From Candidatus Korobacteraceae bacterium (GTDB lineage Bacteria; Acidobacteriota; Terriglobia; Terriglobales; Acidobacteriaceae), in contig JBEKXQ010000010.1 of NCBI GenBank assembly GCA_049511915.1, forward strand, positions 4,215-68,214: a stretch of DNA of 64,000 nt, read 5' to 3'. This document shows, piece by piece, positions 8,629 through 43,294 of this stretch. Each line of letters begins with the position of its first letter. The first letter of the stretch is position 1. Below the pieces are notes generated by a model. That model did not search any database. It saw nothing but the letters and a program-made list of their open reading frames with translations, and was not told the DNA's origin. The position numbers and the translations under genes are program-made.

Positions 8629-9128
8629 TTCTACCCCTCCAAGCTGTCAGCTGCGAACAAAGACGCTTGTCCCCAATCGTGCTGGCGGCGGAAGACCGAC
8701 TGTGGATTGCTTCATTTTCATTGCTACCATCATGAGAGTTCTAGCGCTCCCTTTCTGTGACAGGCGTCACAGCGTGGGGGAAAGGCCCACTCAGATTGAA
8801 CGCACCTTCTGTGCCAGTCGACTCACTCATCAATATGTTGAAAGTTCGAGGTTAGCGGCAGTGGATACCGTTTTGGGACCACAGACTTGTCTCATTTCGC
8901 GACAATACTGTCCGCAAGCAGAACAGTACATCCTTCACTCCTGATCGATGCCGGGTAGGAGCGAATGGACCAGAGGCTTAGTCGCCCAGCGTTAATCGTC
9001 GTCAACTAAATCCGTATCGGGAGACAAGCTCGCATATTCATGACTTGTTAATAATCAAGCTGGCGGAGGTCGACTAGCTTAGAGACGTATTCCAAGCTCA
9101 AAATATGACTTGGTTGGGAGGCATCTGG

Positions 9129-23227: not shown

Positions 23228-23605
23228 ATGTATCGCCGTCTCTTCCTTATCGGTCTCGCCATCTGGATCGCCGCTACCCTCGCCTTGCGCTTCGCCGGAC
23301 AATTCATACTCCGTAGGCGCCCCTGGCCGGCAACGATCATCCTGTTCGCGGTCAGCTTTCTCCTGATGGCGTGGCTGGCACGCCGTCTCTGCCGACGATT
23401 TCAAGTGCCGCCCGAGCAGTGGCCCGAAGGCGCTATCTCGCTTGCCATGCCAACCCTGTTGCTTGATCCCTTCTCCAGCGCCTTTTTCCCGGTGGTGTTT
23501 CCCAACCTGGCTCCCGCGTTGGCTGGCGTCTTCGGTGGTTGGATGCTGGCCTGCTGTGCCGGCGCGTTGCTGGGAGGAACGTCGCGTCCGGGCTCCAATC
23601 GGTGA
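23228..23605 (+). CDS. Small four-TM membrane protein
   Basis: 125-aa hydrophobic ORF. Its stop overlaps the GTG of the TetR gene (GTGA). Confidence 0.7.
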   Translation: MYRRLFLIGLAIWIAATLALRFAGQFILRRRPWPATIILFAVSFLLMAWLARRLCRRFQVPPEQWPEGAISLAMPTLLLDPFSSAFFPVVFPNLAPALAGVFGGWMLACCAGALLGGTSRPGSNR

Positions 23606-24258
23606 CCAGCCATCGTCCTAGTCTGTTGAGGTTCGAGAAGCTGCCGCCGGAGCCGCGTCAGCAGCGCAGCCAGGAAAAGCGCAGGCGGCTGAAGGAAGTG
23701 GCGCTTCAACTCTTCCGCTCCCGTGGATACGAACGCACCTCGGTCGAGCAAATTACGAAGCGCGCCAATCTCGCCACCGGCAGTTTCTATCAGCACTATC
23801 GCTCCAAACAGCAACTGTTGCTAGCGCTCATGGACGAGTTGCTGGCGGCGATGAGCCGGCTGAGTCTTCGTCCCGATTACACCGGCGACGTCCGCGCGAG
23901 CCTGCGGGAGCTGTTGGCTCGCGGATTCTCCAACGACTTGCGTTATCTGGGCGCTTATCGCGCTTGGGAAGAAGCCGTGCTCTACGACCCGCAAATGGCC
24001 AGCAGTCAGATGGCGATCCGCGCGTGGACGACGAAGCGTGTTGCTGTACTGCTCACCTCGTTGCAACAGTGGCCCGGCGCGCGACCCGGCGTTGACGTGC
24101 CCGCACTGGCGCAGGCCATCGATACTCTCTTTTGGAGCCTGTTGGCACAGGCCGTGTTCCTGACGAGAGTGGAGTTGAACGACTGGATCGATGCAGCAAC
24201 TCACCTGATCTACCACGCGCTGTTCCTCGACCCACCAAAGCAGGATAAGGCACAGTAG
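23602..24258 (+). CDS. TetR/AcrR-family transcriptional regulator
   Basis: HTH region VALQLFRSRGYERTSVEQITKRANLATGSFYQHYRSKQQLL. The GTG at 23602 overlaps the upstream stop by 4 nt. The track ORF begins at 23539. Confidence 0.85.
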   Translation: MTSHRPSLLRFEKLPPEPRQQRSQEKRRRLKEVALQLFRSRGYERTSVEQITKRANLATGSFYQHYRSKQQLLLALMDELLAAMSRLSLRPDYTGDVRASLRELLARGFSNDLRYLGAYRAWEEAVLYDPQMASSQMAIRAWTTKRVAVLLTSLQQWPGARPGVDVPALAQAIDTLFWSLLAQAVFLTRVELNDWIDAATHLIYHALFLDPPKQDKAQ

Positions 24259-24420: not shown

Positions 24421-25224
24421 TCATTGCTGCGGTGGTGGCGCTGGCGGCGTTGTCGGTGGTGGTGGTGCTGGCGGGGCCTGTGGCTGGCGCGTTGGCCGGG
24501 TCAGTTTCGGCGGCGGCGGCGTTGGGATATACACGGTCCGCAGGAACTTTCCGCTGGCATCGAAGTCCCATCCGAAGCGGGCCAGACCAACGTGCTGGCA
24601 GGCATGACATCCGTCGATCAAGGGATAACTCACGATAAACTCGGGGCCTCCCGCGGGCAAGGGCTGCACCCGCGGCCACGGCGCGCCTCCACTGCGGTCG
24701 CCCGGCCAAATATCGGATTGAGCAAACTTCTTTTTTACTCCCTGAAACATTGGGTCCCGTTCCAGCGCCGCCCGATCCAGCTTTTGCGGATCGTCGACGT
24801 CGAGAATCTTAGGACTGCCGTTCACCAGCATCAGGCCATAGTTGTCATTGGCGCGCAGCGGATAGAACACTTGCGCTGCATCCACCGGGCCGTACTTCTT
24901 AAAGGCAGTCATGATTCCCACCAGGCCGCCGTTCTGCTGATACAGCATGCGAGTGAAATTCAGCGCGCCGGCAGGTGCTCCCGCCGCCGCGATCTGATTC
25001 ATGAAGCATTGGTCATAACTGGCCGGCCCCGCGCCTTTTTCGCAAGCCAAATGCGCTTTGCTCAGAAAGTCCTGCGGCGGCTGCCACACCGCCGAAGCGC
25101 CTATCTTGTCGCTAGAAGGCGCCGGCATCGCAGCTTGGGCGTCAGTCGAACCAGCTTGAGGAATAGCCTCCACCAGCGCACAACTTGCCAGAATCGCGAT
25201 GAACAACAGCAATGATCTTTTCAC
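24421..25224 (-). CDS. Secreted protein of unknown function, paralogue B (GCxxCxH motif, Pro-rich tail)
   Basis: GTG start with GGAGAAGGG upstream. Signal peptide MKRSLLLFIAILASCALVEA. Paralogous to 22291-22989. C-terminal PTPPPPK...APPAPPPPTTPPAPPPQQ. Confidence 0.7.
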   Translation of the reverse strand: MKRSLLLFIAILASCALVEAIPQAGSTDAQAAMPAPSSDKIGASAVWQPPQDFLSKAHLACEKGAGPASYDQCFMNQIAAAGAPAGALNFTRMLYQQNGGLVGIMTAFKKYGPVDAAQVFYPLRANDNYGLMLVNGSPKILDVDDPQKLDRAALERDPMFQGVKKKFAQSDIWPGDRSGGAPWPRVQPLPAGGPEFIVSYPLIDGCHACQHVGLARFGWDFDASGKFLRTVYIPTPPPPKLTRPTRQPQAPPAPPPPTTPPAPPPQQ

Positions 25225-25414
25225 TTAATTCCCTTCTCCACTCTGCAAATGAACTGCGTCACCGTGTCCGGCAGCGCCCCAGTATCTCCATTCTGCGGGC
25301 GCAAGGTCAAACTGCCCATGATCGCCATGGTGGCGTGCCTGTGTGCTGTTGAACCAGCGCAAGGTGACGTGAATCACAGACGCTCGTGCCCGGCGGCGCA
25401 ACAATCGATACAGG

Positions 25415-25870
25415 ATGAGTTTCAGGCCACAAATACGAAGAGCGGGGTCGCTGCTGTTGATGATCGCGCTGCTCGCCTGGGCTGAAACGGGGCTGGCAAC
25501 GGATTCCAGTGCCGGCCACGGTCCGCAGTGCCATGCCACCATGCCGCACATGAGTCATGCAACCGCAGCCGCGATGCATGGTATGTCGGCCGGCTGCTGT
25601 CCGCGGCATGTCAGCTCAAAATCCGGATGCCCCTCGCATCCCGGCCTGATGGCTGTTCCCGCGTATCGTCCCGATTGCTGTACGGTCAGCGGCCAGCCTT
25701 CGCGCCTACACGCGTTCCTGATCGTATCAGGCGCAACCATCGAAGAGATCGGCGAGGGATTTGCAGGCCCGCTCCTTGCGCCCTCGACACGAGTCACGGG
25801 ATGGTTGCTCGCCGTATCGCCACCCTTTACGAAGTCCGTTTTTGAGACGAAAGCGGACCTGAGAATCTAG
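25415..25870 (+). CDS. Secreted His/Met/Cys-rich protein (putative metal-binding)
   Basis: Signal-like LLLMIALLAWAETG, then HGPQCHATMPHMSHATAAAMHGMSAGCCPRH...CPSH...DCC. The start codon is uncertain. Confidence 0.55.
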   Translation: MSFRPQIRRAGSLLLMIALLAWAETGLATDSSAGHGPQCHATMPHMSHATAAAMHGMSAGCCPRHVSSKSGCPSHPGLMAVPAYRPDCCTVSGQPSRLHAFLIVSGATIEEIGEGFAGPLLAPSTRVTGWLLAVSPPFTKSVFETKADLRI

Positions 25871-25972
25871 GCCTCCTCGGAAACTTATCGCGTCCGAGCG
25901 GCGGCAAGAAACTGCCCCGTACCCGCATCGCAGCGGATCGAACATCCGCATCACCAGAATTCAGAGGAAATT

Positions 25973-26344
25973 ATGAAATCGAAAGCAGTCGTAATACTAA
26001 GCACACTTGCTATGGCTCTGGCTCTGATGGCCCAGAGCGCAACCCAAACAACTCCCGCCGGCGGAGACGCCAAAACCTGTGCCTGCTGCAGTCATGACCA
26101 GGCAGACGGCAAGGCGGCATGTTGCGGTAAGGACGCGGCCTGCTGCGCCAAAGGAGCTGCGTGCTGCAAAGACGGCAGCTGCTGCCAAGGCAAGGACGGC
26201 AAAGCTTGCCCCATGATGTCGGAGGACCAGAACGGCAAGATGGCCTGCTGCGCTGGCGGCAAGTGCCCTATGATGTCGAAAGGCAAGGGCGGCAAGAGCT
26301 GCTGTGGCGGCAAGATGTGCGAGCGTCCGCAAGCCGGAGCCTAA
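25973..26344 (+). CDS. Secreted Cys-rich (18 Cys, CC doublets) metallothionein-like protein
   Basis: GAGGAA RBS. Signal peptide MKSKAVVILSTLAMALALMAQS. The mature ~100 aa has CACC, four ACC/SCC doublets and two CPMMS...CC repeats, and is Gly/Lys/Ala-rich. A terminator follows. Confidence 0.7.
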   Translation: MKSKAVVILSTLAMALALMAQSATQTTPAGGDAKTCACCSHDQADGKAACCGKDAACCAKGAACCKDGSCCQGKDGKACPMMSEDQNGKMACCAGGKCPMMSKGKGGKSCCGGKMCERPQAGA

Positions 26345-26398: not shown

Positions 26399-26427
26399 GC
26401 CCCGGCTGCGGCCGGGGCTTCTTGCTT
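26399..26427 (+). terminator. Rho-independent terminator
   Basis: Stem GCCCCGGC/GCCGGGGC with loop TGCG, followed by TTCTTGCTT. A second hairpin GCTAAGCC/GGCTTAGC lies just upstream (26369-26391). Confidence 0.65.
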
Positions 26428-26692
26428 ACCTCGACCTGATTCTCGTCCCCTGAACCGCATAGAAGCGGCAGAGCTGAATTCCCGATGAAGTTCACAAAAT
26501 TATCGCTGGCGCGGACTTCGGAAAGGTGTACAATTTGCGCACTGCGGATCGTGGGGCACGGTTCTGTTCGAATTTAGCCTACGATCTATCGTCTGCCACT
26601 CAACTCCGGGCGCGTTCGGTAGCTTGCTTGGGCGACCCCGCCCGGCACTCACGAGAACGCAGTTTCTAAGCTGTGCTCTCGCGGAGGCCATT

Positions 26693-27718
26693 ATGCAGTG
26701 TAGACGCTGGTTTGCTCTCCTTCTCGCTTCCCTTCTCATCGGTGTTGCGCATGCTCAGCTGCACATTGGAGGGAGTGCGGTCAACTCGAGTGGCAATGTG
26801 CACGTGCGAGTCATCACAGAAAACGGGCGCAATGCCGGCCCGTACTTGCAGGTTCGCTTGTTGGGAGGAGGGTCCAGCACAATGGGTACTACCTATACGA
26901 ATGACGTCGGCGAAGCCTCGTTCGACGGCGTTTCTTTGGGCAGTTACTCAATCGAAGTTAGTGGGGATGGAATTCAGACGACGACCACCCCACCCTTCAT
27001 GGTCGATGAGCGCAAGTCTTCGCAAGCGCAGTGGGTGACGGTCCGGCGGCTGGAAGACTCGGGACCAAAACCCGTGTCAGCCCACTCCAACATGGTCTCC
27101 GCCAGTGACCTTAATGTCCCCGTGAAAGCACGCAAGGAATTGGACAAGGCCAACGAAGAGATGGCCATGCAGAATTGGAAAAAGGCTCTGGAGCACTTGA
27201 ACAAATCGATTGCTCTCGCTCCACAATATGCCACCGCTTATAACAATCTAGGGGTGTTCTACGCGAAGACAAACGACATCCCCCACGAGGAGGAAGCCCT
27301 GAAGAAGGCGGTCAGCCTGGACGAGCACTTCGCTCCGGCACTGCTGAACTATGCGAAGCTGTGTATGCGGCAGAAAAACTTCCCGCAGGCGGAAGAAATG
27401 CTGCAGAAGGCCGGTACGGTGGAACCCAACAATCCCGAGACACTCATGTTGTTAGCCGATGCGGAATTCATGGATCGCCATTTCGATGCCGCCATTGCCA
27501 GCGCGCATCAGGCACACTCCTCGGGGCAGGATCATCCGTCATTCGTGCACTACATCGCGGCCCGCGCCTATCAACAGAAAAATCAGGCGCCGGAAGCGCT
27601 TGCCGAATTCCAGCTATTCTTGCAGGAAGAGCCCAAAGGACCGCGTGCCGATTACGTGCGCGGAAACGTTGCGAAGATGCAGAGCGCTAGTGCCAGACAG
27701 CCAGCCAGCCCACAGTAG
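26693..27718 (+). CDS. Secreted CarboxypepD_reg-like + TPR-repeat protein
   Basis: Signal peptide MQCRRWFALLLASLLIGVAHAQ. Ig-like segment GNVHVRVITENG...YSIEVSGDG. It is followed by several TPR units (ALEHLNKSIALAPQYATAYNNLGVFY...). Confidence 0.8.
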   Translation: MQCRRWFALLLASLLIGVAHAQLHIGGSAVNSSGNVHVRVITENGRNAGPYLQVRLLGGGSSTMGTTYTNDVGEASFDGVSLGSYSIEVSGDGIQTTTTPPFMVDERKSSQAQWVTVRRLEDSGPKPVSAHSNMVSASDLNVPVKARKELDKANEEMAMQNWKKALEHLNKSIALAPQYATAYNNLGVFYAKTNDIPHEEEALKKAVSLDEHFAPALLNYAKLCMRQKNFPQAEEMLQKAGTVEPNNPETLMLLADAEFMDRHFDAAIASAHQAHSSGQDHPSFVHYIAARAYQQKNQAPEALAEFQLFLQEEPKGPRADYVRGNVAKMQSASARQPASPQ

Positions 27719-27847: not shown

Positions 27848-28096
27848 CTAACCCTCGGCATTCTTCATCTTCAGCTGACTCTTGTTCTCTTCTAGAAACT
27901 CGCGGATCTGGTCAGCCTGATCCAGCAACCTGACCCACTGTTCGTAATAGAGCGTGACTGGGAAGCGCCCCAGTCCATAGACGCTGACACCACCTTTTTC
28001 GCTGACTTTGTACTGGAGTACACCTCGTCCCCGTCCCTGCGCCTTCTCTAATTCCGCGACTCTGGCTTTCAGTTCGTCATAACTTGGTTCCGCCAT
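27848..28096 (-). CDS. Small hypothetical protein
   Basis: 82-aa ORF with a coiled N-terminus. No recognised motif. Confidence 0.45.
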   Translation of the reverse strand: MAEPSYDELKARVAELEKAQGRGRGVLQYKVSEKGGVSVYGLGRFPVTLYYEQWVRLLDQADQIREFLEENKSQLKMKNAEG

Positions 28097-28288: not shown

Positions 28289-29776
28289 TTACTGCTTCCC
28301 TGCCGGCGTGGCGCTGTGCTCGCTTTGCTCCGAGATTTGCCGCGCGGCATCGCGTGCCGGAGGCTGGTTTGCCGGATGAAGAGTGTCGAGGAAGGAGACC
28401 AGCGCCGCTACCTCCGCCGGATTCAGGTTCTTCCCATAAGCCGGCATGTTGCCGCCACCCTGCACGACCTGGCGCACGAGTTGGTCGTGTGTCATACGTA
28501 CCGCTACGCTATCGAGGGTCGGGCCACGCAGGCCACCCGAGCCGCCGATGGAATGGCAGTTGCGGCATTGCTTCTCCTGGAAGATCGCCGACCCTTGGCG
28601 CTCTAACGGCGAGCGTCCATCCAGATACCGCACCGGCACGGGATCGCCACTCCACGCGTCCATGATAGGGCTCCACGGCGTGTAGCTAGCGTAGTGGGTC
28701 AAGGTGCCGAGCGTCACCGCAGTCAACGCGATGGTGACGACTGCTATCGGACGCCGCTTCCAACTCTTCTCACCTTCGCCCGCGACGAACGGCAGCAGGA
28801 CAAGAAAGCCGATAATGACAACTGGGCCGACCAATAGTGCCACAGTCTCCATTTGTGGCGGCAGCAGAGCCAGGAGCGCATACAACCACTGAAAGAAGTA
28901 ATCAGGCTTGGGGACGGTCTGCACAATGGTCGGATCGGGCTGGCCGCTCGGTCCATAAGGGCCGAAGAACGCCGCGCACGCCAGCACGCTGCCGATCACG
29001 ACGGCGGCAAAAATCATGTCCTTCCACACCGCATCGGGGACGAAGGGAATGCCGTCCTTATGGACTTCCTCCTCGTACTCTTGCACGTAGGTCGAGCGGC
29101 GCACCAGACGGCCCGGCATGGGCCAGTCGTTGATGCCCAGCTTTAGCACCATCAGCAGATGCACGGACACGAACGCGATCAGCAGTCCCGGAATGACGAA
29201 CACATGAAATGCGAAGAAGCGCGACAGCGTGTCGCCAGCGATGATGGGGCCGCCCAGCAGCAGATGTACCACCCATGCGCCAATGAACGGAACGCGGCCA
29301 CAGATCGAGGCGCCAATGCCTAACCCCCAATACGCATCTTGATCGAAGCGCAGCACCTGGCCGGTGAACGCCATGCCCAGCGTCATCAGCAGCAGGAAGA
29401 CGCCCACGATCCAGGTCAGCTCGCGAGGGAACTTGTAGGCACCGAACATCGCCACCTGCACCATGTGGATGAGCACGATGGCGACCATGAAGTTCGAACC
29501 CCATCCATGCGCCGCGCGGAGAAACCATCCCAGCGTCACGCCATGATTGAGGTACTGCAGACTATTCCAGGCCTCGCCCGCGGAAGGCACATAGATCAGC
29601 GCCAGCATGATGCCAGTGAAGATCTGCAGCATGAAAACGGTGAGCGCTGCACTACCGAAGACGTAGAACCAGCTCGCGGACTTAGTGGGAACGCGATGCT
29701 CGGCTGTCTCCCGCACCATCGGCCAGATCTTCAGCCGCTGCTCGAACCAGTCGCCGATTTTCGCTAGCCTTGACAT
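28289..29776 (-). CDS. Cytochrome b (bc-complex) fused to a C-terminal monohaem cytochrome c domain
   Basis: Cytochrome b N-terminal fold (WFYVFGSAAL..., GWFLRAAHGWGSNFMVAIVLIHM), multiple TM helices, and a C-terminal CRNCHSIGG haem-c motif. Confidence 0.9.
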   Translation of the reverse strand: MSRLAKIGDWFEQRLKIWPMVRETAEHRVPTKSASWFYVFGSAALTVFMLQIFTGIMLALIYVPSAGEAWNSLQYLNHGVTLGWFLRAAHGWGSNFMVAIVLIHMVQVAMFGAYKFPRELTWIVGVFLLLMTLGMAFTGQVLRFDQDAYWGLGIGASICGRVPFIGAWVVHLLLGGPIIAGDTLSRFFAFHVFVIPGLLIAFVSVHLLMVLKLGINDWPMPGRLVRRSTYVQEYEEEVHKDGIPFVPDAVWKDMIFAAVVIGSVLACAAFFGPYGPSGQPDPTIVQTVPKPDYFFQWLYALLALLPPQMETVALLVGPVVIIGFLVLLPFVAGEGEKSWKRRPIAVVTIALTAVTLGTLTHYASYTPWSPIMDAWSGDPVPVRYLDGRSPLERQGSAIFQEKQCRNCHSIGGSGGLRGPTLDSVAVRMTHDQLVRQVVQGGGNMPAYGKNLNPAEVAALVSFLDTLHPANQPPARDAARQISEQSEHSATPAGKQ

Positions 29777-30306
29777 CCCTTGCTCCTCTGGTGAAGGCTC
29801 GCGCTGGTGGATAGCGTCGGCAGTTGTCCGGCCTCAATCATCAGGTGACCGTTCTCCACCTTGTAGGGATACTCGAACAGGCCGCGCGGCGGCGGTCCGG
29901 AAGCGCGCGAGCCATCGCGGTAATACACACCGCCGTGACACGGACACATGAACAGCCCCGATTGCGGAAACCAGCGTACTGGACAACCCAAGTGTGCGCA
30001 GTTGATGGCGAAAACCTGGAACGTCTCGCCCTGTACACGGCGGACCCAACAAGGAATGTTATCGGTCTCGCCATCCCATGTATTTGAGATAGGGTTTTTG
30101 TACTTCGCCAGCCGCGTCTGACCCTCGGGAAATTCATCCAGTTCGCCTAAACTGACCCACTTGCGATAGCGTCCGCCCTCACCGCGCATGATGGGCGCCA
30201 GCAGATAGCCAACCACAGGTGTAGCCAGAACGAGGGCAGCCAAACCGTTGAAGACCAAGCCAAGCTTGACGAAGAACTGCCGTCTTGAGACATCGCGGTC
30301 GCTCAC
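29764..30306 (-). CDS. Rieske [2Fe-2S] subunit
   Basis: CAHLGCPVRW and CPCHGGVY boxes. The GTG at 30306 overlaps the upstream stop (GTGA). A Tat-like RRQFFVKLG follows the start. Confidence 0.9.
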   Translation of the reverse strand: MSDRDVSRRQFFVKLGLVFNGLAALVLATPVVGYLLAPIMRGEGGRYRKWVSLGELDEFPEGQTRLAKYKNPISNTWDGETDNIPCWVRRVQGETFQVFAINCAHLGCPVRWFPQSGLFMCPCHGGVYYRDGSRASGPPPRGLFEYPYKVENGHLMIEAGQLPTLSTSASLHQRSKGCQG

Positions 30307-31064
30307 TGCTGCCCTCCGGGCGAAGAAATTGCTGACGCGGCAGAAGAAGGCGTCGCTGGCCCGGGAGACGCCGTCGCCGCGCTCATCGGACGCTGCGCCG
30401 CCAGCCACGCCACCACGTCGGTAATCTCCTGGTCGGTCATCGGATGTCCAGGAACATTGTTTCGCCAGTCCGGCGCGTTAAAGTCGGGCCGCCCGACAAT
30501 TACAGTGGTCCGCAGTCCCTGGTCAGTTATCAAACTGAGATAGTAGGGATCCACGATAGAACCAACTTTCGCCAAGCCTTTGCCGTCGGCGCCGTGACAC
30601 GAAGCGCAGAATGTTGTGAAGGCAGCTGCTCCCCGCTGCGAATGGCCGGGGGCTTTGGGCGCGTAAGGCGGTGCTGTCCCACTCTGTAGGATATTGGGCT
30701 GGCCCCAGCGCTGCCGCATTCCCTGAACGATGGCGTCGACCTGCTTGCTCGTCAGCATCCCTCCCTCGCTCTGCGCGAAGGCTGACATTGCCGTACCCCG
30801 CCTGCCCTTTGAGATCGTGTTCCGCAGGGTATTGTCGTCAACAATCGCCAGGTATAAGGGATCGCCGATTGGCGGCGCCGGCCCCAGCTTGCCGTCGGCG
30901 CCATGACAGCCCGCACAATTCTGTTTGTAGAGTACGACTGGATCGAGAATGTCGGTTGGGCGTTGCACGATGTCAGCGGGAGTAGGTTTTCCTGGCAAGT
31001 CACATGCGGTAACCGCCAGCAATGCAGCGAACACCAAGGCAGGAAGGGCGTAGCGAGTTGTCAT
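30303..31064 (-). CDS. Dihaem cytochrome c lipoprotein
   Basis: Lipobox LAVTAC. Two CxxCH motifs (CAGCHGADGK, CASCHGADGK). Confidence 0.85.
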   Translation of the reverse strand: MTTRYALPALVFAALLAVTACDLPGKPTPADIVQRPTDILDPVVLYKQNCAGCHGADGKLGPAPPIGDPLYLAIVDDNTLRNTISKGRRGTAMSAFAQSEGGMLTSKQVDAIVQGMRQRWGQPNILQSGTAPPYAPKAPGHSQRGAAAFTTFCASCHGADGKGLAKVGSIVDPYYLSLITDQGLRTTVIVGRPDFNAPDWRNNVPGHPMTDQEITDVVAWLAAQRPMSAATASPGPATPSSAASAISSPGGQQ

Positions 31065-31921
31065 CGCTTGTTGTCCTCGCCCTCGTGCTCTTCCATAAGG
31101 CCTGGCGCCTCAATGCCCGCTCGCAGCGCGAGAGGCAGGTTTTCCGCCGTCCAGACCTTGTTCTGCCGCGCTACCACGAGGCCCGCAACGACTCCGAAAG
31201 CGGCTTGCGAAGCGACGAACCACCACCAGTTAATACGCTGATCAAGCAGCGGATTGACGTAGCCAATGATGTGGTACAGCAAGCCGGTCCATAGCAACGG
31301 ACCGATGACGCCTCCCAGAATAATCGGGCGGCGCGGAAGCAAGGGCAGCATTGCGCCGTAAAGAAGTCCCACAAGCAGGCACATAGTGATGTGCATAGCC
31401 AGGGCAAATAGGAACCACCCCACCTGGAAATGCAGCATCTCCTCGATTGTGGGAGTTGCGGAAGGCGCGTACAAGCTCCCTGCAAGCAGGTTTATCGGAT
31501 ACCACACACTGTGGTAGAAGATCAGACCGTAAAGCGCCGCGAGCACCGCCATGGCCACGCCCCCGGCCAGTCCTCCTTTCACACCCGCCGCGATGGGATA
31601 GATCTTCAGCGGCAGCCACGCGCGCGGAATCTCCTGCGCAACCGGTATCCGCAAGACTTCGCGCGGGGGAAGCACGCGGGCCGGCTCTTCGGGCTGCACC
31701 GGAATCAACTCATGCTGTTCATGCGGTAGCACCTGGCGAAACCAACCCACGGCACCGGAGATGGTCAGAATCGCGCCAAGGACACTGACCGACACATCCG
31801 TGAGCAGACCCGCAAAAGTCAGCGCTGTCCCCAGCGCCATGGCGAATGGCCATGCCGTCGGCGCCGGCATCAGTACTGCTGGCTTTTCGGAACCGCCGCT
31901 CATCTGTGTCTCGTCACTCAT
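31061..31921 (-). CDS. Conserved multi-TM membrane protein of unknown function inside the respiratory operon
   Basis: 286 aa with about seven TM helices. ATGA overlap with the downstream cytochrome c gene. Lies 47 nt after ctaE. Confidence 0.7.
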   Translation of the reverse strand: MSDETQMSGGSEKPAVLMPAPTAWPFAMALGTALTFAGLLTDVSVSVLGAILTISGAVGWFRQVLPHEQHELIPVQPEEPARVLPPREVLRIPVAQEIPRAWLPLKIYPIAAGVKGGLAGGVAMAVLAALYGLIFYHSVWYPINLLAGSLYAPSATPTIEEMLHFQVGWFLFALAMHITMCLLVGLLYGAMLPLLPRRPIILGGVIGPLLWTGLLYHIIGYVNPLLDQRINWWWFVASQAAFGVVAGLVVARQNKVWTAENLPLALRAGIEAPGLMEEHEGEDNKR

Positions 31922-31968
31922 GAATCAGCCTTAAGATTGCAGTTACCTGAAGCGCTGCTCAATACTTC

Positions 31969-32565
31969 TCATCGCGTGATGAAATACACCACCGACAGCA
32001 CGACAACCCAAATGGCATCTACAAAATGCCAGTACATGGCAAACACGTTGATGCGCTCCGAGTGCTCCTGTTTCACGGCACCGAAAAGGGTCAACAACCA
32101 GATGATCGTCAAGCCGATAAGACCGACCGTCACGTGGAACGCATGCAATCCCACAAGCGAATAGAACGTCGTACCGAAGAGATTGGTACTGATCGTCAGA
32201 CCATCCTTATAGATCAGGCGATACCATTCGCGGCCCGTGCCAATCAGGAAGATCACGCCCAACGCGATCGTCAGGAACCAGAAGAAGCCGAAGCGCTTAA
32301 CATTACCGCGATGCAGCGCCTTCTCAGCCAAAAGAATTGTCAGGCTGCTGGAGAACAGACAGATCGACGTGAGATACGGAACGTCAAGCACCTGTGCAGG
32401 GGTGGGACCGCTGAGGCTCTTGCCCGCGTAGTACAGGTACGCCACGACGAAGATGCTGAAGATCGCCGACTCCGCGATGATCAGGCACCACATGCCGACC
32501 TTGCCGCGGAGGTTCGCGGACAGCGGCATATCGCTTTGCGGCACTGTTATCGTCGCTGCTGCCAA
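31969..32565 (-). CDS. ctaE: Cytochrome c oxidase subunit III
   Basis: 198 aa with five TM helices. C-terminal MYWHFVDAIWVVVLSVVY motif. Confidence 0.9.
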   Translation of the reverse strand: MAAATITVPQSDMPLSANLRGKVGMWCLIIAESAIFSIFVVAYLYYAGKSLSGPTPAQVLDVPYLTSICLFSSSLTILLAEKALHRGNVKRFGFFWFLTIALGVIFLIGTGREWYRLIYKDGLTISTNLFGTTFYSLVGLHAFHVTVGLIGLTIIWLLTLFGAVKQEHSERINVFAMYWHFVDAIWVVVLSVVYFITR

Positions 32566-32587
32566 AAGGTTCTCCTAATCCTTCCGT

Positions 32588-34276
32588 CTATTCATACTTC
32601 CAATCCGGATCTTCCGGATGCTTCAAGTCCCACAACGGACGCCTGCTCCTGATCACCGGAATCTCCGCGTAGTTGTAATCCGGAGGCGGCGAGGTCGTGT
32701 GCCACTCCAGCGTCCACGCATCCCAGGGATCGTTGCCGGCAATTTCGCCTTTGTAGTATGACCAGATAACGTTGGCCGCCCATATCAGCACGCCGACGGC
32801 CTGGAAGATCACTCCGATGGAGACGATCAGGTTCCAGACCTCCCAGCCGCGACTGGCCTCGTATGTGTAAATGCGGCGCGGCATGCCCAGCAGACCGGGA
32901 ACGTGCATGAAGTCGAAGGTCAGATGAAAGCCGATCACGAACAGCCAGAAATGCCACTTGCCCAAGGTTTCATTCATCATTTTTCCAACGACCTTGGGAT
33001 ACCAGTAATACGTGCCCGCGAAAACCGCCATCACGATGCCGCCCAGGATCACGTAATGGAAGTGGGCTACCACAAAGTAGGAGTTGCCCAGTTGCCAATC
33101 GAAAGGCGCCGAGGCCAGCATGATGCCGGTCAGACCCGCGATCAGGAACTGGCATAAGAAAGCGACGCAGAACAGCATAGCGACCTTGTAAATGATCTTG
33201 CCGCCCCACATCGTTCCCACCCAGTTGAAGATTTTTATCCCCGTGGGGACGGCAATCGCCGCGGTAGACGCCACAAAAAACGCGTTTGCGTACGATGTCA
33301 TACCGACGGTGAACATGTGGTGCGCCCATACGCCCAGGCTGATGAAGCCGATGGAAACCGTGGCCGCAACCATGATCGAGTAGCCAAAAATCGGCTTGCG
33401 CGAGAAAACCGGAATCACCTCGGAGACGATCGCGAACGCCGGCAGGACCAGGATGTAGACCTCGGGGTGTCCGAAGATCCAGAAGAAGTGCATCCAGATG
33501 ACGGCCGAACCACCGGCTTGGGTGTCGAAGAAATGTCCGCCGAGATAGCGGTCGATTAACAGCATGAGTTGTGCGGCGGTCAGCGGTCCAATGGCTACCA
33601 GCACCAGCGCCGCCATCACGGTGTTCATCCACACGAACAGCGGCATGCGGTTCAGCTTCATGCCGGGACAACGCAGGCACAGAATGGTCGTCATCACATT
33701 CAGCGCAGTCGCAATGCTGCCGAAGCCGCTCACCAATATGCCGACGATCCAATAGTCAGTGCTGTGTCCCACAGAAAATGCCGGCGAAGTCAGCGGCGCA
33801 TAGGCAAACCAGCCGACGTCGGGCGCGCTGCCGGCGCCATAAAGTCCAAAGCCGCCGATGAAGCTGAAGTACAGGATGATGCCGCCCAGCGCGCTCATCC
33901 AGAAGCCCCAGGCATTCAGGCGGGGAAACGCCATATCGCGCGCCCCGATCATCAGCGGAACCAGATAATTGGCGAAGCCAAACACGATGGGCATGGCGGC
34001 GAAGAAAATCATGGTCGTGCCATGCATGGTGAACAGACGGTTGAAAACCTCAGGCGAGACGAGGTGGTTGTTGGCGACCGCCAATTGGGCGCGCATGATG
34101 GAGGCTTCCACGCCGCCGATTACAAGGAACAGGATGCCGTAGCTGAAGTACATCAGCCCGAGCCGCTTGTGATCGACCGTGACCATCCAGTCGTGCAGCA
34201 CTTGCACCAGCGGGCGGGAGCTCTCCCGCTCCGGCGTAGTGACCATCGGGCGCGACATAGGTTGGGCATCGAACAT
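32588..34276 (-). CDS. ctaD: Cytochrome c oxidase subunit I
   Basis: Motifs WIFGHPEVYILVLPAF, WAHHMFTVG and VVAHFHYVI. Twelve or more TM helices. Confidence 0.95.
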   Translation of the reverse strand: MFDAQPMSRPMVTTPERESSRPLVQVLHDWMVTVDHKRLGLMYFSYGILFLVIGGVEASIMRAQLAVANNHLVSPEVFNRLFTMHGTTMIFFAAMPIVFGFANYLVPLMIGARDMAFPRLNAWGFWMSALGGIILYFSFIGGFGLYGAGSAPDVGWFAYAPLTSPAFSVGHSTDYWIVGILVSGFGSIATALNVMTTILCLRCPGMKLNRMPLFVWMNTVMAALVLVAIGPLTAAQLMLLIDRYLGGHFFDTQAGGSAVIWMHFFWIFGHPEVYILVLPAFAIVSEVIPVFSRKPIFGYSIMVAATVSIGFISLGVWAHHMFTVGMTSYANAFFVASTAAIAVPTGIKIFNWVGTMWGGKIIYKVAMLFCVAFLCQFLIAGLTGIMLASAPFDWQLGNSYFVVAHFHYVILGGIVMAVFAGTYYWYPKVVGKMMNETLGKWHFWLFVIGFHLTFDFMHVPGLLGMPRRIYTYEASRGWEVWNLIVSIGVIFQAVGVLIWAANVIWSYYKGEIAGNDPWDAWTLEWHTTSPPPDYNYAEIPVIRSRRPLWDLKHPEDPDWKYE

Positions 34277-34292
34277 CAGCTTCTCCTGGCTC

Positions 34293-35396
34293 CTAGTTCA
34301 GGCTCATGAGATACGCCACCACCGCATTCGTGTCCTGCTCATCAAGTTGCATCGCCGGCATCAGGCAGCCAGGTTTGATGGCATCCGGTTCCTTCACCCA
34401 CAGCAGCAAATTCTGTTGCGTATTCGGCGCCGCGCCAGAAGCAATCGTAGAGCGGCTCATCAAGTGGGTCAGGTCAGGTCCAAACTTGCCATTGGCAGTT
34501 GTGCCTGAGATCGTATGACAGTTCATGCAGGCGTTGGTCTCGAACACTTTACGCCCGGTGACCACCTGTTGGGACATTACTGCCGGTGTTTTCTGCTGCT
34601 GCGTCCACTTTTCGAAATCTTCCGGCGAATCGACCATCACGTTCAGCAACATCTTGGCGTGCTGCGTTCCGCAGTACTGCGCACACTGTCCCACATAATG
34701 TCCCACATCGTGGGGGTCAATCCACATCTCGTTCCTGCGATTGGGAATGAGGTCAATCTTGCCCGCCAGTTGCGGTACCCAGAAGCTATGGTCGGTATCG
34801 GCAGAAAGCAGAATGATGTGCGTCGGCGTGGGATGCGCCGCATCGCTGACGGGGACGTGAAGTTCATTGGCGGTGACAAAGCCGTAGCCGGGATACTGAA
34901 ACTCCCACCAGAATTGATGACCAATCGCAGTGACCTCAATCGCATTCGCAGGGAACTGAGCGTCCTCCACCGCGTGGATCACTCGCGCCGCCGCCAGGAA
35001 CAGCACCACAACGATCAGAATCGGGATGACAGTCCACGCCAGCTCCACCTGGTTGCTGCCGTAAATCTGCGGCGGCTCGTGATTGTCGTCAGTGGGTCGT
35101 TTCCGATACTTCACCGCCGCGTACACGATCAGACTGAAGACGACCACAAAGATTCCCAGACAAATGGCCATCACAAATAGCGAAAGATGGTAAATATCGT
35201 GCGCCGGAGTTGAAGCAGGATTGAGCAGCGACGGCGTAGACGATGGGCCAGATATAGAAGCCGACATGTTCGCGCCAAATGCCATGACCGAAACGAAGAA
35301 CAACGTCAGCCAGGCGGCGTAACGGACCATGCGCTTCGTAGGGCCTCCCGGCAACTTCGAGTTATGTCTTGCCCGATTCGTGGATTGCAAGTGCAT
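34293..35396 (-). CDS. ctaC: Cytochrome c oxidase subunit II with C-terminal cytochrome c domain (caa3 type)
   Basis: CuA site GQCAQYCGTQHAKM and haem-c motif CMNCHTISG. The start may be the internal MVRYAAW (35330). Confidence 0.9.
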   Translation of the reverse strand: MHLQSTNRARHNSKLPGGPTKRMVRYAAWLTLFFVSVMAFGANMSASISGPSSTPSLLNPASTPAHDIYHLSLFVMAICLGIFVVVFSLIVYAAVKYRKRPTDDNHEPPQIYGSNQVELAWTVIPILIVVVLFLAAARVIHAVEDAQFPANAIEVTAIGHQFWWEFQYPGYGFVTANELHVPVSDAAHPTPTHIILLSADTDHSFWVPQLAGKIDLIPNRRNEMWIDPHDVGHYVGQCAQYCGTQHAKMLLNVMVDSPEDFEKWTQQQKTPAVMSQQVVTGRKVFETNACMNCHTISGTTANGKFGPDLTHLMSRSTIASGAAPNTQQNLLLWVKEPDAIKPGCLMPAMQLDEQDTNAVVAYLMSLN

Positions 35397-37319: not shown

Positions 37320-38045
37320 CTACGTTTTCAGATGGTCGTTTGTCATCTCGCGAATTCCGTTCGGGCTGCTGACCACGACCAAATGGGTCAGGCCCAGAAA
37401 CAGCCCGTGCTCCACAATTCCGGCCCGGCCCTCGAGTTCGAGCGCGAGCTTTGCGGCATCGGCGATCGGGCCGAAGTCGCAGTCGAGAATCATGTTTCCC
37501 TGATCGGTGCGATACTCCTCTCCGTTGGCGGTCTGGCGCACAGAATACTTCGCGCCCAGAGATTCCAGGAACCGTGCCGGCGAACGCCAGCCGAACGGAA
37601 GTACCTCGACCGGCAAAACGTGCAGCGTGCCGAGTCGCGGCGAGAGCTTGGTCTCATCAACGACAATGACCTCGCGCGCCGTGGCTTGCGCGACCAGTTT
37701 CTCGCGCAGCAGTGCGCCACCGCCTCCCTTGATCAGGTTGAGCTGAGGATCAACTTCGTCTGCGCCATCAATAGTGACGTCGATGTTCTTTGGTAAATCG
37801 TCCGGGAGCATGGGTATGTTGAGTTCCAGGGCGGCGTCGGATGAGGCCCGCGAAGTCGCGAAGCCCACGATGTCCTTCAATTCCCCGCTTTGCAGTAGAG
37901 CCCCAATTCGGCAAATGGCGAAAATTGCAGTTGAACCGGTGCCGAGCCCGACGGTCATCCCGGATTGGATGTAGCGGACGGCATACTCCGCCGCAGCCTT
38001 CTTCAGTAAGGCCTGCTGGTCGGATGATGCAGTGGGTGCGTTCAT
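37320..38045 (-). CDS. rpiA: Ribose-5-phosphate isomerase A
   Basis: Motifs GLGTGST, DGADEVD and KGGGGALLREK. Confidence 0.9.
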   Translation of the reverse strand: MNAPTASSDQQALLKKAAAEYAVRYIQSGMTVGLGTGSTAIFAICRIGALLQSGELKDIVGFATSRASSDAALELNIPMLPDDLPKNIDVTIDGADEVDPQLNLIKGGGGALLREKLVAQATAREVIVVDETKLSPRLGTLHVLPVEVLPFGWRSPARFLESLGAKYSVRQTANGEEYRTDQGNMILDCDFGPIADAAKLALELEGRAGIVEHGLFLGLTHLVVVSSPNGIREMTNDHLKT

Positions 38046-38052
38046 TGTGACT

Positions 38053-39744
38053 TTAGCTCTTCCGGCCCAGAGCCTTGCGATAGCGGCTGATCAGCGTGTT
38101 GGTGGAGCTGTCGTGCTTCAGTTGCGGCGCGGAATCGCTCTCCAACTCCGGGATGATGCGCTTGGCCAGGACCTTCCCCAGTTCCACGCCCCACTGGTCG
38201 AAGGAATCGATGTTCCAGACGGCGCCTTGGGTGAAAACGTTGTGCTCATACAGCGCAACCAGCGTGCCCAAGGCTCGTGGCGTGAGCTTGTCGACCAAGA
38301 TGGTATTCGTCGGACGGTTGCCTTCGCAAACACGAAAGGGTGTCTGGAAGTCGGGCGAGCCTTCGGCCTTCAGCTCTCCGGCAGTTTTACCAAACGCCAG
38401 CGCCTCGGCCTGCGCGAAGACGTTCGCCGTAAGGTAGTCGTGCTGAACCTTGAGCGGGCTCAGCGGCTGGCAAAAAGCGATAAAGTCGCATGGGATCAGC
38501 TTCGTCCCCTGATGGATCAACTGGTAGAACGAGTGCTGGCCATCAGTGCCCGGCTCGCCCCAGATGATCGGGCCGGTCTGCCACTCCACGTGATTGCCTT
38601 CCAGATCAACGTGCTTCCCGTTGCTCTCCATCTGCAACTGCTGCAAATAGGCTGGGAAGCGTTTCATGTTGTCCGCGTAGGGCATGATGCCGACGGTCTG
38701 GGCACCGAAAAAGTTGTTGTACCACACTGTCAGAAGTCCCATCAGCACGGGCAAGTTCTTCTCCAGCGGGGTGGTGCGGAAATGCTCGTCCATCGCGTGG
38801 AAACCGGCCAGCAGCTCGGCAAAACTATCCGGACCAACGGCAATCATAGTGGACAGGCCGATGGCCGAATCCATCGAATACCGCCCACCGACCCAATCCC
38901 AGAAGCCGAACATGTTGGCGGTGTCGATGCCGAATTTTGCGACGCCCTCGGCGTTCGTCGAGACCGCGACAAAATGCTTGGCGACGGCGGCCTCGCTCTT
39001 CAGCGAATCCACGATCCACTTGCGCGCAGTGGCTGCATTGGTCATGGTCTCCAGCGTGGTGAAGGTCTTTGAAGACAGGATAAAAAGCGTTTCGGTGGGG
39101 TCGAGATCGTGGGTCGCATCGGTGAAGGTCGCGCCATCGACGTTAGCGACGAAGCGGAACTTCATTGATGGATCGGTAGAATCGCGTAGCGCGTCATAGG
39201 CCATTTCCGGACCAAGATACGAGCCGCCAATGCCGATGTTGATGACGTTCTTCATCGGCTTGCCGGTGTAACCCTTCCACTCACTGGTGCGCACGCGGTT
39301 GGAGAAGGCCGCCATTTTGTCGAGCACGGCATGAACGTCGGCAACGACGTCTTTGCCATCAACTTCGATTTTGACGCCACGCGGGGCGCGTAAAGCGACG
39401 TGCAGGACCGCACGTCTCTCCGTAATGTTGATCTTTTCACCGCGAAACATGGCGTCGCGGCGCGCTTCTACACCACACTCACGGGCAAGTTGCACCAGCA
39501 GACCGATGGTCTCGTCGGTGACACGGTTCTTGGAATAGTCCAGATACAACCCTGCGCCTTCGGCGGTTAGCCGTGTCCCACGCTGTGGGTCGTCGGCGAA
39601 CAACTGCCGCAGCTGGACGTCCTTGATTTTTTCGTAGTGAGCCTGGAGCGATTTCCAGGCTGGGGTGTCGATGGGTCGCTGGGTGGTCATCCTTGGCTCC
39701 GGCATATTTCCTCCCATGAATTCCTCGTCATGCAAATCTGTCAA
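38053..39744 (-). CDS. pgi: Glucose-6-phosphate isomerase
   Basis: Full-length PGI pattern ([20 protein letters not shown]). The start may be an internal Met. Confidence 0.95.
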
Positions 39745-39823
39745 AGCCGCGAGCTCCGAGCCACGAGCAAAAACCTAACGACGACGCCGTCCCCGGAACT
39801 TGCTCGAAGCTCGCGGCTAGCAG

Positions 39824-40900
39824 CTACTTCAATGCCTTGCTCTTGGTCTCGATCGAATTCAGGAGATCTTTCCATGAATCGACAAACGACTTCGCGCCCT
39901 CCGACTGCAAGTCCGCGGCGAGTTTGGTCAGATCGATACCAGCCTTGCTAAAGGCTGATAGTGTCTGCTCGCAACTTCCACCATCGCGAGGAATCGCTTT
40001 GGTGACACTGCCGTGCTCGCCAAAGGCGAGCAAAGTCTCTTCCGGCATGGTATCGACGGTGTTGGGTGCAGCCAGTGAGCCGATGTAAAGAACGTCCGAA
40101 GCCTTGGGGTCCTTGGTCCCAGTGCTGGCGAAGAGCAGGCGTTGCGCGCGCGCGCCCAGGTTGGCGAGCCGCTGCCAGCGATCGGACTCCAGCACATCGC
40201 GATACGCCTTGTACGTTTGCCAGCCGATGGCCGGGCCTAGCTGATCGCGAAGATCGGCGGGCACCTTGTCCATCGTGGCTTTGTCCCAGCGGCTGACAAA
40301 CAGCGACGCAACCGAGCGAACATCGGGACTGAGACCCGCTTCCACGCGGCGCTCCAGTCCATGCATGTAGGCGTCGGCGGCGCCAAGATAGTGCTCGCGG
40401 CTGAAGAGTAGCGTCACGTTCACCGACACGCCGGAGAAGATTGCCTCCTCAATGGCAGTTCTACCTTCGGGCGTGCCCGGAATCTTAATGAAAAGATTCG
40501 GACGCGCCGCTTTTTGGTGCAGCGTCTTGGCCACGGCAACCGTCGTTTCGGCGTCGTAAGCCAACAGTGGAGAAACCTCGAGTGATACCCAGCCATCCAC
40601 GGTCGCTGTGCGCTGGTGGATGGCAGCGAACAGGTCGGCAGCGCGGCGAAGATCTTCAATCGCCATCTCGAAGAACGAATCTTCTGCAGACAGGCCGCTA
40701 GACATCAGCTTGGCGATCTCCCCGTCGTACGAGTCTCCGTGAGTCATCGCCTGATCGAAGATCGTCGGATTCGAGGTTAGGCCTGTAATCGACAACTCGT
40801 CGATGTAGCGCTTTAACGTGCCAGTGTCGAGCATCTGGCGGGTGATATTGTCGAGCCATAGACTCTGTCCAAGGTCATGCAGTTGTTGCGTGGCTTTCAT
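39824..40900 (-). CDS. tal: Transaldolase
   Basis: Motifs LGQSLWLDNITR, GLTSNPTIF and FIKIPGT (Schiff-base Lys region). Confidence 0.95.
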   Translation of the reverse strand: MKATQQLHDLGQSLWLDNITRQMLDTGTLKRYIDELSITGLTSNPTIFDQAMTHGDSYDGEIAKLMSSGLSAEDSFFEMAIEDLRRAADLFAAIHQRTATVDGWVSLEVSPLLAYDAETTVAVAKTLHQKAARPNLFIKIPGTPEGRTAIEEAIFSGVSVNVTLLFSREHYLGAADAYMHGLERRVEAGLSPDVRSVASLFVSRWDKATMDKVPADLRDQLGPAIGWQTYKAYRDVLESDRWQRLANLGARAQRLLFASTGTKDPKASDVLYIGSLAAPNTVDTMPEETLLAFGEHGSVTKAIPRDGGSCEQTLSAFSKAGIDLTKLAADLQSEGAKSFVDSWKDLLNSIETKSKALK

Positions 40901-40914
40901 CTTGTTACCTCTCT

Positions 40915-43067: not shown

Positions 43068-43294
43068 TGGCGTGCTCCCGTTTGCGGCGTCTTTGCCGGA
43101 CCTCGTAGTTGCACTCGCGGCCTTGGTCCAAGACCGCATGACAACAACAGCGTTTTTGCGTTTGCCGTCCGGCTGAGGCCATTGAGCGGTAAGAATGCCT
43201 ACGCAGAACGAAGTGTCGGGAATTTTACTCCAAGTAGGTCAATAATCAAACCACCCTACGATGTTGGATATTTCTGGCGTCCGCCGACGCCCCA

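Follow-up and report, generated by a model that had tools for sequence, protein, structure and literature searches.

To our knowledge, bacterial metallothioneins are regarded as rare and cytoplasmic, and copper buffering in the periplasm is known from His/Met sponges and from pre-folded bundles lined with Cys. The bacterial metallothioneins described to date carry no signal peptide and are cytoplasmic (PMC7558416), and PmtA likewise has no signal peptide (PMC11237414). Among exported proteins, Csp1 is a Cys-rich, high-capacity Cu(I) store that leaves the cytoplasm by twin-arginine translocation (Tat), and PcoE and SilE are periplasmic proteins, disordered in the apo form, whose repeated metal-binding motifs provide a first-line buffer; these proteins are the precedents for exported copper stores or sponges (PMC7558416). 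CopG, also periplasmic, binds a Cu4 cluster through a CxCC motif and two adjacent Met residues and matters under anaerobic conditions (PMC7558416). CutF is a small protein that has a signal peptide and belongs to no Pfam family; Cys residues form a motif in its centre, and a conserved motif lies at its C-terminus. Its gene opens the operon and is followed by an intergenic stem-loop that is needed for regulation, and the protein itself is very scarce (PMC8456105). Here, we describe an operon of two genes, A and B, in a 64,000-nucleotide stretch of DNA (the window) from Candidatus Korobacteraceae bacterium (assembly GCA_049511915.1, contig JBEKXQ010000010.1, positions 4,215 to 68,214 of the forward strand). 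Gene B (25973..26344, + strand) encodes a 123-residue protein rich in Cys, Met, Lys and Gly, with 18 Cys, and gene A (25415..25870, + strand) encodes its 151-residue partner; both are predicted to be exported. The operon is most likely a variant of periplasmic metal buffering, made from protein families and an RNA motif that lie outside current databases.

The open reading frame (ORF) of B was found where a preliminary description of this DNA had placed it, with the 18 Cys residues and the Sec signal reported there, and the product of A carries the Cys/His/Met stretch GHGPQCHATMPHMSHATAAAMHGMSAGCCPRH quoted in the same description. At 90% identity, B has 108 homologue clusters and A has 13. 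Across 61 loci, substitutions at codon positions 1, 2 and 3 number 1470, 1292 and 2827 for B and 3847, 3283 and 5304 for A, and aligned Cys residues are retained despite switching between TGC and TGT codons (198 of 862 cases for B and 169 of 318 for A). Given the existence of homologues, the weight of third-position substitutions and the retention of Cys across codon switches, neither A nor B is a chance ORF. Signs that an ORF might not be translated were looked for and none was seen, coding signatures being present in both genes, and A and B are almost certainly a genuine exported pair. An ORF of 111 codons on the opposite strand (25997-26332) was rejected as a mirror artefact of B. Public gene calls for the window sequence begin at internal Met residues, giving 110 residues for B and 136 for A, and these late starts cut into both signal peptides. 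The starts at 25973 and 25415 are favoured because the N-termini are conserved and because they agree with a Shine-Dalgarno sequence and with the promoter geometry. Gene A is under-called by gene finders, and in two loci (L001 and L002) it is present without annotation. The operon ends in an intrinsic-terminator-like hairpin with a T-rich tail (26399..26428, + strand), in which a stem-loop of 8 G-C pairs and a 4-nt loop (26399-26418) precedes TTCTTGCTTA, in keeping with the earlier proposal that the pair has a terminator of its own.

Sec-type signal peptides are recognizable in both products, and export of the two proteins is predicted, as had been proposed. The N-terminus of B, MKSKAVVILSTLAMALALMA|QS, is a typical Sec signal (MKSK, a hydrophobic segment and LMA|QS), and a signal of the form MKSK-hydrophobic-A(L/M)A|Q is conserved throughout the family. 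The candidate assignment of B as a lipoprotein was ruled out, there being no lipobox, and a haem-binding CxxCH site was likewise ruled out, none being present. Downstream of the signal, B contains the motif C36-A-C-C-S-H (CxCC-x-H), CC doublets in a Gly/Lys/Asp/Ala background, two C-P-M-M-S...CC units and the sequence S-C-C-G-G-K-M-C. The Cys residues are laid out as 4 single Cys and 7 CC doublets, of which one belongs to CxCC, five follow in the Gly/Lys/Asp/Ala background and the seventh is in SCCGGKMC; the preliminary description had rightly drawn attention to the doublets but listed six, omitting MACC. It had also recognized the two CPMMS repeats, which read CPMMS-x5-K-x-x-CC and CPMMS-x5-K-x-CC.

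Comparison of homologues separates the constant from the variable parts of B. Throughout the family, the signal peptide, the segment K-x-C-A-C-C-(N/S)-H-D, at least one K-C-P-M-M-(S/A)-K unit and several CC doublets are retained; C36-x-C38-C39 shows little or no variation, and C-P-M-M is also conserved. The number of CPMM units ranges from one to five (five in tandem in P0276), and the number of CC-G-K-D units also varies. Some homologues have His/Met inserts such as MSHDEMMSKDGK, some have additional CC-rich or His-rich C-terminal tails, and the central Cys residues are freely exchanged for Ser, Gly or Ala and altered by indels. Such expansion and contraction of repeats is typical of metal-sponge proteins.

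Composition statistics were obtained for 153 mature B-like proteins. The median chain has 16 Cys in 103 residues (median Cys content 15.7%), with 6 Met, 14 Lys and a single Leu, Ile or Val, and 137 of the 153 have no Phe, Trp or Tyr. In the window, mature B (~100 residues) has no Leu, Ile, Val, Phe, Trp or Tyr and about one His. The number of Cys varies from 11 to 25 and is even in 77 proteins and odd in 76. A chain of this composition is predicted to be unable to form either a hydrophobic core or a fixed disulfide map. Given its composition, the variable positions of its Cys residues and their random parity, B fits a metallothionein-like, disordered metal binder and not a disulfide knot, and the metallothionein-like character suggested earlier is borne out at the level of composition (Cys, CC doublets and Lys, with few aromatics). 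The same data bear on the idea that B is a disulfide-cross-linked protein of the envelope or matrix, comparable with the chlamydial cysteine-rich outer-membrane proteins or with a disulfide-knotted repeat. Export and a very high Cys content would suit such a role, as would the oxidising periplasm suggested by apparent structural disulfides in P267, a neighbouring secreted protein described below. However, the random parity and variable positions of the Cys residues weaken it most, central Cys are readily lost, the spacing of the CC doublets disfavours ordinary disulfide pairing, and neither a hydrophobic core nor a match to a cystine-knot family in Pfam or NCBIfam was found; we regard a structural role of this kind as improbable.

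No Pfam or NCBIfam match was obtained for B or for 45 diverse B-like proteins, and a profile search of the PDB with the B alignment returned no sequence match. In these three databases B matched neither a known bacterial metallothionein nor Csp nor any other curated family, and homology to a characterized non-metal family was looked for and not found. When A, B and the neighbouring proteins were scanned against Pfam and NCBIfam, only sub-threshold noise such as UL42 and Anophelin came back.

B can be compared with known metal-binding proteins by architecture. With the metallothioneins (SmtA/BmtA, PmtA, MymT and the eukaryotic proteins) it shares a Cys content of ~16%, CC and CxC pairs, an abundance of Lys and a lack of aromatics, and its folding would be expected only around metal-thiolate clusters. 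It differs from them in being Sec-exported, Met-rich and about twice as long and in having an obligate partner gene, and it does not match the Pfam model for bacterial metallothioneins, which describes a zinc-finger-like Cys/His pattern. CopG (CutG in Rhodobacter) is likewise exported, and its CxCC and two Met residues recall the sole invariant N-terminal motif of B, CxCC, together with C-P-M-M. By analogy, the invariant CxCC and the Cys-plus-two-Met units of B resemble copies of the CopG ligand set. CopG folds as a thioredoxin-like domain and has one cluster site, whereas B lacks a hydrophobic core and repeats its sites many times over; the composition of B is incompatible with a globular thioredoxin-like fold, and no sequence, Pfam or PDB relation between the two was detected. 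The statement in the preliminary description that bacterial metallothioneins are cytoplasmic is upheld by the literature (PMC7558416, PMC11237414), but its corollary that an exported CC-doublet protein would be unusual is not, given that periplasmic CopG makes an exported, CC-containing copper site something other than unprecedented.

Like PcoE and SilE, B is exported, rich in repeats and without core-forming residues. The donors of PcoE and SilE are His and Met, with no Cys, whereas those of B would be Cys and Met, with about one His, and no sequence match was found; moreover, PcoE and SilE are encoded on resistance islands under metal-sensing two-component control, whereas the gene for B is chromosomal and lies behind a CRP/FNR-type site. 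Csp1 is also exported and Cys-rich, but it is a pre-folded four-helix bundle with a Cys-lined core and uses the Tat pathway, whereas B has a Sec signal with no twin-arginine and no helix-forming hydrophobic residues; B and Csp showed no Pfam or PDB match.

Taking these comparisons together with the motifs, we judge the odds that B binds metal to be somewhat better than even. Metal-resistance genes do not lie consistently nearby and the operator is not of a metal-sensor type, so that metal binding is inferred from composition and motifs. On grounds of coordination chemistry, the abundance of Met would favour Cu(I) or Ag(I) over Zn, Cd or Hg. An alternative with the same architecture is that B sequesters Hg(II), Cd(II), Zn(II) or As(III) and not copper. 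Vicinal CC pairs are classic ligands for Hg(II) and As(III), as in MerT, the C-terminus of MerA and ArsD, and B has seven CC doublets and A two that are invariant. Mammalian Zn/Cd metallothioneins combine CC doublets with Lys, and the source genomes all come from peat, bog, palsa and other soils, settings in which Hg and As are mobilised. Set against this, Met-rich motifs (C-P-M-M, MM and HxxMM inserts) characterise Cu(I)/Ag(I) sites and are seldom part of sites for Zn, Cd, Hg or As, and no mer, ars, czc or znt genes were found in the neighbourhoods examined, so that a metal other than copper seems unlikely.

The distribution of the operon was established by a pattern scan for B in one genome per species (GTDB), which gave 57 loci. 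All are from metagenome-assembled genomes recovered from peat, bog, palsa and Danish soils, and their labels are Korobacteraceae, Acidobacteriaceae or Terriglobales; two have odd taxonomic labels and are probably mis-binned, and there are no isolate genomes among the 57. Candidatus Sulfotelmatobacter belongs to the same family, Candidatus Korobacteraceae. A profile search run exhaustively over 1.84 billion representative proteins returned only 73 B clusters at E <= 1e-3, and the B family is small and lineage-restricted. A homologue of A, detected with a hidden Markov model, sits immediately 5' of a B-type gene on the same strand in 57 of 57 loci, and an A homologue is also found beside B in L001-L004 and in L062-L070, the latter fetched via distant B-like proteins. 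All of these loci belong to uncultured Korobacteraceae or Terriglobales, either as metagenome-assembled genomes or as contigs from soil. The pairing of A and B is obligate, and the gene pair reported in the preliminary description is thus a constant of the family. Across the 57 species the module is single-copy, syntenic and vertically inherited. Noted separately is contig CAWIMR010000018.1, which contains two complete modules in one genome (L045 and L051, ~83 kb apart), each comprising A, B and the neighbouring genes P267 and P232; B seems frameshifted in both, possibly as a result of long-read homopolymer errors.

A variant arrangement is found in the clade L056-L061, where the order is operator, B' (a CPMM-type protein), A, RNA element and B2. 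Here, B2 is an acidic peptide of 67 residues with ~14 Cys (MKSKLQAVFC...CCDGAGCC) and a C-terminal GAGCC. A simple swap of gene order was considered for this clade and rejected, as the covariance model R1 of the RNA element (see below) places the element between A and B2. Given this order, the unit that is universal consists of A, the element and a Cys-rich exported protein. The three-gene operon occupies 5998-7128 in L056 and occurs likewise in L057, L058, L060 and L061. Downstream of B2 lies a gene for a secreted, low-complexity protein rich in Ser, Gly, Thr and Asn (7261-7833 in L061), with a similar ORF at 7283-7642 in L056. The occurrence of a third short CC-rich peptide in some loci, together with the small size, Cys richness and lineage restriction of A and B, might suggest that both are precursors of ribosomally synthesised modified peptides or of bacteriocins, with their N-termini as leaders. 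The N-termini are, however, ordinary Sec signals and no conserved radical-SAM, LanM, YcaO or transporter-protease gene is found nearby, which together weaken the idea most; with a module that is inherited vertically as a single syntenic copy, an origin of this kind is highly improbable.

Protein A is less well conserved than its obligate association with B might suggest, and its conservation is confined to a few positions. In the window these are C39-H40, C61-C62-P63, C88-C89 and the C-terminal SPPF...KADLRI. Among the homologues C39, C61-C62, C88-C89 and R150 are invariant, and C39 with H40 and C61-C62 with P63 are invariant or nearly so. Almost no variation is seen in the C-terminal sequence (SPPF)-x-K-P-V-F-D/E-x-K-T/A-D-L-R-I; the S-P-P-F within it is 13-16 residues from the end of the protein in the window and in many homologues, but divergent members have lost it. 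The family also has a strand-like hydrophobic segment, RPxAFLV, and the remaining sequence is poorly conserved. The His/Met stretch varies across homologues, and its earlier interpretation as a periplasmic Cu(I) Met/His motif could not be maintained, since the stretch is not conserved and the conserved ligand candidates are one Cys and two CC doublets. In the AlphaFold2 model only an N-terminal helix (residues 4-26) is confident, followed by a G-x-A cleavage-type site, and A is probably disordered on its own. Tat export of A was considered and rejected, the RR pair not being conserved among homologues. A has no significant Pfam family (the single hit, UL42 with E 0.011, is below its cut-off), and neither a profile search of the PDB nor an NCBIfam scan gave a match.

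Ahead of the operon lies the palindrome GTGACGTGAATCAC (25364..25377), which has the form GTGA-N6-TCAC, extends to TCACAGAC and resembles a CRP/FNR-type operator. The consensus across loci is GTGAY-N4-RTCAC-AGAC, and the window site can be written GTGAC-N4-GTCACAGAC. The first gene of the module is preceded by GTGA-N6-TCAC in all 57 genome loci, as it is in L062-L068 and L070; the 670 kb of loci contain only 73 sites of this form, and the operon operators account for 57 of these. A -10-like hexamer, AACAAT (25400..25405, + strand), begins 22 nt after the palindrome and ends 9 nt before the ATG of A, and in ~60 distinct loci a hexamer (A/G)ACAAT or ATACT is found 22-23 nt past the palindrome with the ATG of A 9-10 nt later. 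The distance from the centre of the palindrome to the edge of the hexamer is 29.5 nt. In class II CRP/FNR-dependent promoters the site is centred at -41.5, to which this spacing is equivalent, and the GTGA-N6-TCAC core is also shared; the left half-site of the operon differs in having no flanking T of the Escherichia coli consensus. These features point to class II promoter geometry, with a predicted transcription start near 25412, and to a regulator of the CRP/FNR type. Given that the ATG of A is at 25415, the mRNA of A would be nearly leaderless. The operator is unlike those of the MerR, ArsR, CsoR and Fur types of metal regulator. A second, better CRP-like palindrome, TGTGACAGGCGTCACA, is intergenic (8757-8770 in the window) and precedes a gene for a MacB/FtsX-like permease (6127-8628, - strand); it may share the regulon of the operon, and its examination gave no functional clue.

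FNR, Dnr and HcpR regulate O2, NO and redox regulons, and an operator of this kind invites the explanation that B is a sacrificial or cycling thiol/thioether buffer of the periplasm, directed at oxidants, NO, electrophiles or sulfide, with A as its redox partner and with control that reflects the redox or nitrosative state. The high content of Cys and Met in a chain with no fold would agree with this, as would the MsrA and MsrB genes beside the module in L003 and L004, NorB in L068 and a superoxide dismutase (SOD) gene in L066. These neighbours are, however, single-lineage cases, no reductant supply of the DsbD/CcdA or thioredoxin-like type is conserved nearby, and the repeated C-P-M-M and CxCC geometry resembles chelating sites and not random thiols. 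A redox buffer is accordingly a doubtful explanation of B.

The spacer between A and B, 99-134 nt in most loci and up to 226 nt in a few, contains a structured RNA element composed of two hairpins and a near-invariant 25-nt leader (25893-25981, + strand; model R1, alignment A10). Helix 1 (GCGG-C-GGCA / TGCC-CCGT; 25898..25920, + strand) is imperfect in the window and shows compensatory changes in all 8 pairs over 61 loci. Helix 2 (GCGGAT-CGAAC-ATCCGC; 25933..25949, + strand), identified with RNAalifold, has 97% paired cells and compensatory changes in all 6 pairs. Alignments show that the sequence TCACC-AGAATTCAGAGGAAATT (25951..25972, + strand), which includes the Shine-Dalgarno sequence of B, GAGGAA, is nearly invariant, and the consensus after the hairpins, ACC-AGAATTCTGAGGAAA-N2/3-ATGAAATCG, is at least 90% conserved.

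In a sequence-only alignment, 86% of cells in the two-hairpin element are paired, compared with at most 47% in slid controls. A covariance model, R1, was built from 30 sequences. In 61 of 66 sources it found one site, and no more, per locus; 31 of these loci were outside model building, and the match always lay directly 5' of the Cys-rich gene beginning MKSK. In the R1 alignment, compensatory changes are found in 14 of 14 pairs and 85% of cells are paired (at most 48% in slid controls), and the observed covariation score was reached by none of 500 shuffles, a comparison to be read with the caveat that the alignment was fitted to R1. An Rfam scan found no family for the spacer RNA, the one sub-threshold hit (sX6) falling on the terminator hairpin. 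The element might act in processing or stability, control translation or serve as a binding site. Directly after the stop codon of A, the stretch CCTCCTCGGAA (25871..25882, + strand) pairs with the Shine-Dalgarno region of B in the minimum free energy fold and is a possible anti-Shine-Dalgarno sequence. This helix has 83% paired cells (at most 52% in slid controls) in a sub-clade, and it shows no covariation, which follows from the invariance of its 3' side; as a general feature of the element it was rejected, given the lack of covariation and the restriction to the sub-clade.

With the spacer RNA in place, the architecture of A can be set beside that of the CutF-like/DUF2946 proteins. A has 151 residues (<170), a signal peptide, no Pfam domain, poor overall conservation, a Cys motif and a conserved C-terminus; its gene is the first of the operon, is predicted to be expressed at a low level and is followed by structured intergenic RNA. 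The motifs differ, being C...CC-P...CC and K-x-D-L-R-I in A in place of CxxxC/CxxC and a Pro-rich end with a PP motif, to which the S-P-P-F of many, though not the divergent, A proteins may correspond, and the gene that follows encodes a Cys-rich protein and not a multicopper oxidase. None of 24 diverse A proteins matched DUF2946 (PF11162) at E values up to 10. By analogy, then, A is CutF-like in architecture and not in sequence.

These elements can be combined into a model of a periplasmic soft-metal system, to which, with copper favoured, we assign a probability of about 0.45 from the sequence evidence. In this model the layout is self-contained and confined to certain lineages, running from a CRP/FNR-type operator through gene A, a structured RNA spacer and gene B to a terminator. 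B would be a Sec-exported, periplasmic metallothionein-like sponge or store, an abundant binder that encloses ions of a soft metal, with Cu(I) the most likely, in thiolate/thioether clusters whose ligands come from the invariant CxCC, the variable CC-G-K-D run and the K-C-P-M-M-S-K units. A would be a scarce exported partner, analogous to CutF of cutFOG, that hands metal to or from B or maintains its thiols, and the PVFxxKxDLRI sequence at its C-terminus would be docking-like. Transcription would be driven from a class II promoter activated by a CRP/FNR-type regulator, implying that the operon responds to the energy or redox state and not to a dedicated metal sensor. The two-hairpin spacer and the strong Shine-Dalgarno sequence would uncouple the level of B from that of the nearly leaderless A.

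Several observations weigh against this model. Neither A nor B has sequence or structure homology to any metal-binding family in the Pfam, NCBIfam and PDB searches, AlphaFold2, given a shallow alignment (13 sequences), predicted no fold for A, and the operator is not of a type belonging to a known metal sensor. Near the 57 core loci there is no consistent P-type ATPase, Cus/Czc system, multicopper oxidase, MerR/CueR or CsoR. B2 of L056-L061 is CC-rich without Met or Lys, so CPMM is not essential at the B position. Finally, the apparent disulfides of P267 imply an oxidising periplasm, where keeping 18 thiols free and reduced would be difficult without metal loading.

P267 is the divergent neighbour of the operon (24421..25224, - strand), a secreted protein of 267 residues with four invariant Cys (C61, C73 and G-C206-x-x-C209) and 276 homologue clusters. 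Its conserved promoter, TTGACC-18-GATACT, lies at 25310-25281 (- strand). P232 (22291..22989, - strand) is a paralogue of P267 with 43% identity, likewise secreted and sharing the four Cys, usually encoded beside it, and P267/P232 are found divergently upstream of the operon in 35 of 57 loci, which makes them frequent and not obligatory. P267 and P232 have no Pfam match, and a PDB search with the P267 alignment profile returned nothing. The AlphaFold2 model of P267 has a predicted local distance difference test score (pLDDT) of 82 and an alpha+beta structure, in which the protein appears to have structural disulfides, two being likely; a Foldseek search of the model against the PDB gave no significant match (best E 0.058, TM-score below 0.25), and the fold may be undescribed. 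In the window, a gene for a DUF5367 membrane protein and an overlapping gene for a TetR-family regulator (23228-24258) are inserted between P232 and P267; this insertion is found in 7-9 of 57 related genomes, the two genes being adjacent otherwise.

Downstream of the operon is a gene for a secreted CarboxypepD_reg and TPR protein (26624-27718, + strand; 23 of 57 genomes), which has a weak, sub-threshold hit to the CcmH/CycH TPR domain, and then a gene for a conserved 82-residue protein with no family match (27848-28096, - strand; 19 of 57). A respiratory gene cluster (28289-35396, - strand) starts 2 kb downstream of the operon and encodes a cytochrome b/c fusion, a Rieske protein, a dihaem cytochrome c, a 286-residue protein, COX1, and COX2 with a fused cytochrome c domain. 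The proximity of a haem-copper oxidase, itself a copper enzyme, was counted in favour of metal buffering in the window. A conserved linkage of the module to the cytochrome bc/oxidase cluster was rejected, as it is seen in 14 of 57 loci and reflects local synteny. Further along is an ordinary housekeeping row of pentose-phosphate and glycolysis genes (37320-43139, - strand) for ribose-5-phosphate isomerase, phosphoglucose isomerase, transaldolase, a HAD hydrolase and glucose-6-phosphate dehydrogenase. Elsewhere in the core loci the context is unrelated housekeeping. The survey of neighbourhood conservation, an analysis envisaged in the preliminary description, thus leaves the A-B pair as the constant feature and every other neighbour as non-universal. 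Among the more distant loci, L066 has neighbours encoding a Ferritin_2 protein, an Fe/Mn SOD, an iron permease and an ArsR-type helix-turn-helix protein, the module of L067 is flanked by two TonB-dependent receptors, that of L068 lies beside a NorB-like NO reductase, and in L070 a CsoR-family repressor gene is 1.6 kb away. The neighbours in L066, L067 and L070, and NorB of L068, offer weak contextual hints of a role in metal handling.

A search of the literature on exported bacterial metallothioneins and on Cys-rich proteins of Korobacteraceae found no description of the A or B family. The locus adds three protein families (A, B and P267) that are absent from Pfam and the PDB and one RNA motif that is absent from Rfam, and it supplies a clean promoter architecture. 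If the model is correct, an exported metallothionein-like protein and its partner would be a new solution for handling thiophilic metals in an oxidising compartment, and would raise the question of how 18 thiols stay functional there. More tentatively, and with distinctly less assurance, the operon may be the first Sec-exported bacterial metallothionein system, in which a disordered Cys/Met store for Cu(I) or chalcophile metals, an obligate small Cys partner for loading or unloading it, a global CRP/FNR-type redox or energy regulator and a hitherto undescribed two-hairpin leader RNA hold metals outside the cytoplasm. The host organisms are abundant, uncultured Acidobacteria of peatlands, and in peat it is sulfide and organic thiols that control how available Cu, Hg and other chalcophile metals are. 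If the model holds, peat Acidobacteria would keep scarce or toxic soft metals outside the cytoplasm under redox swings, for example to supply their haem-copper oxidases.

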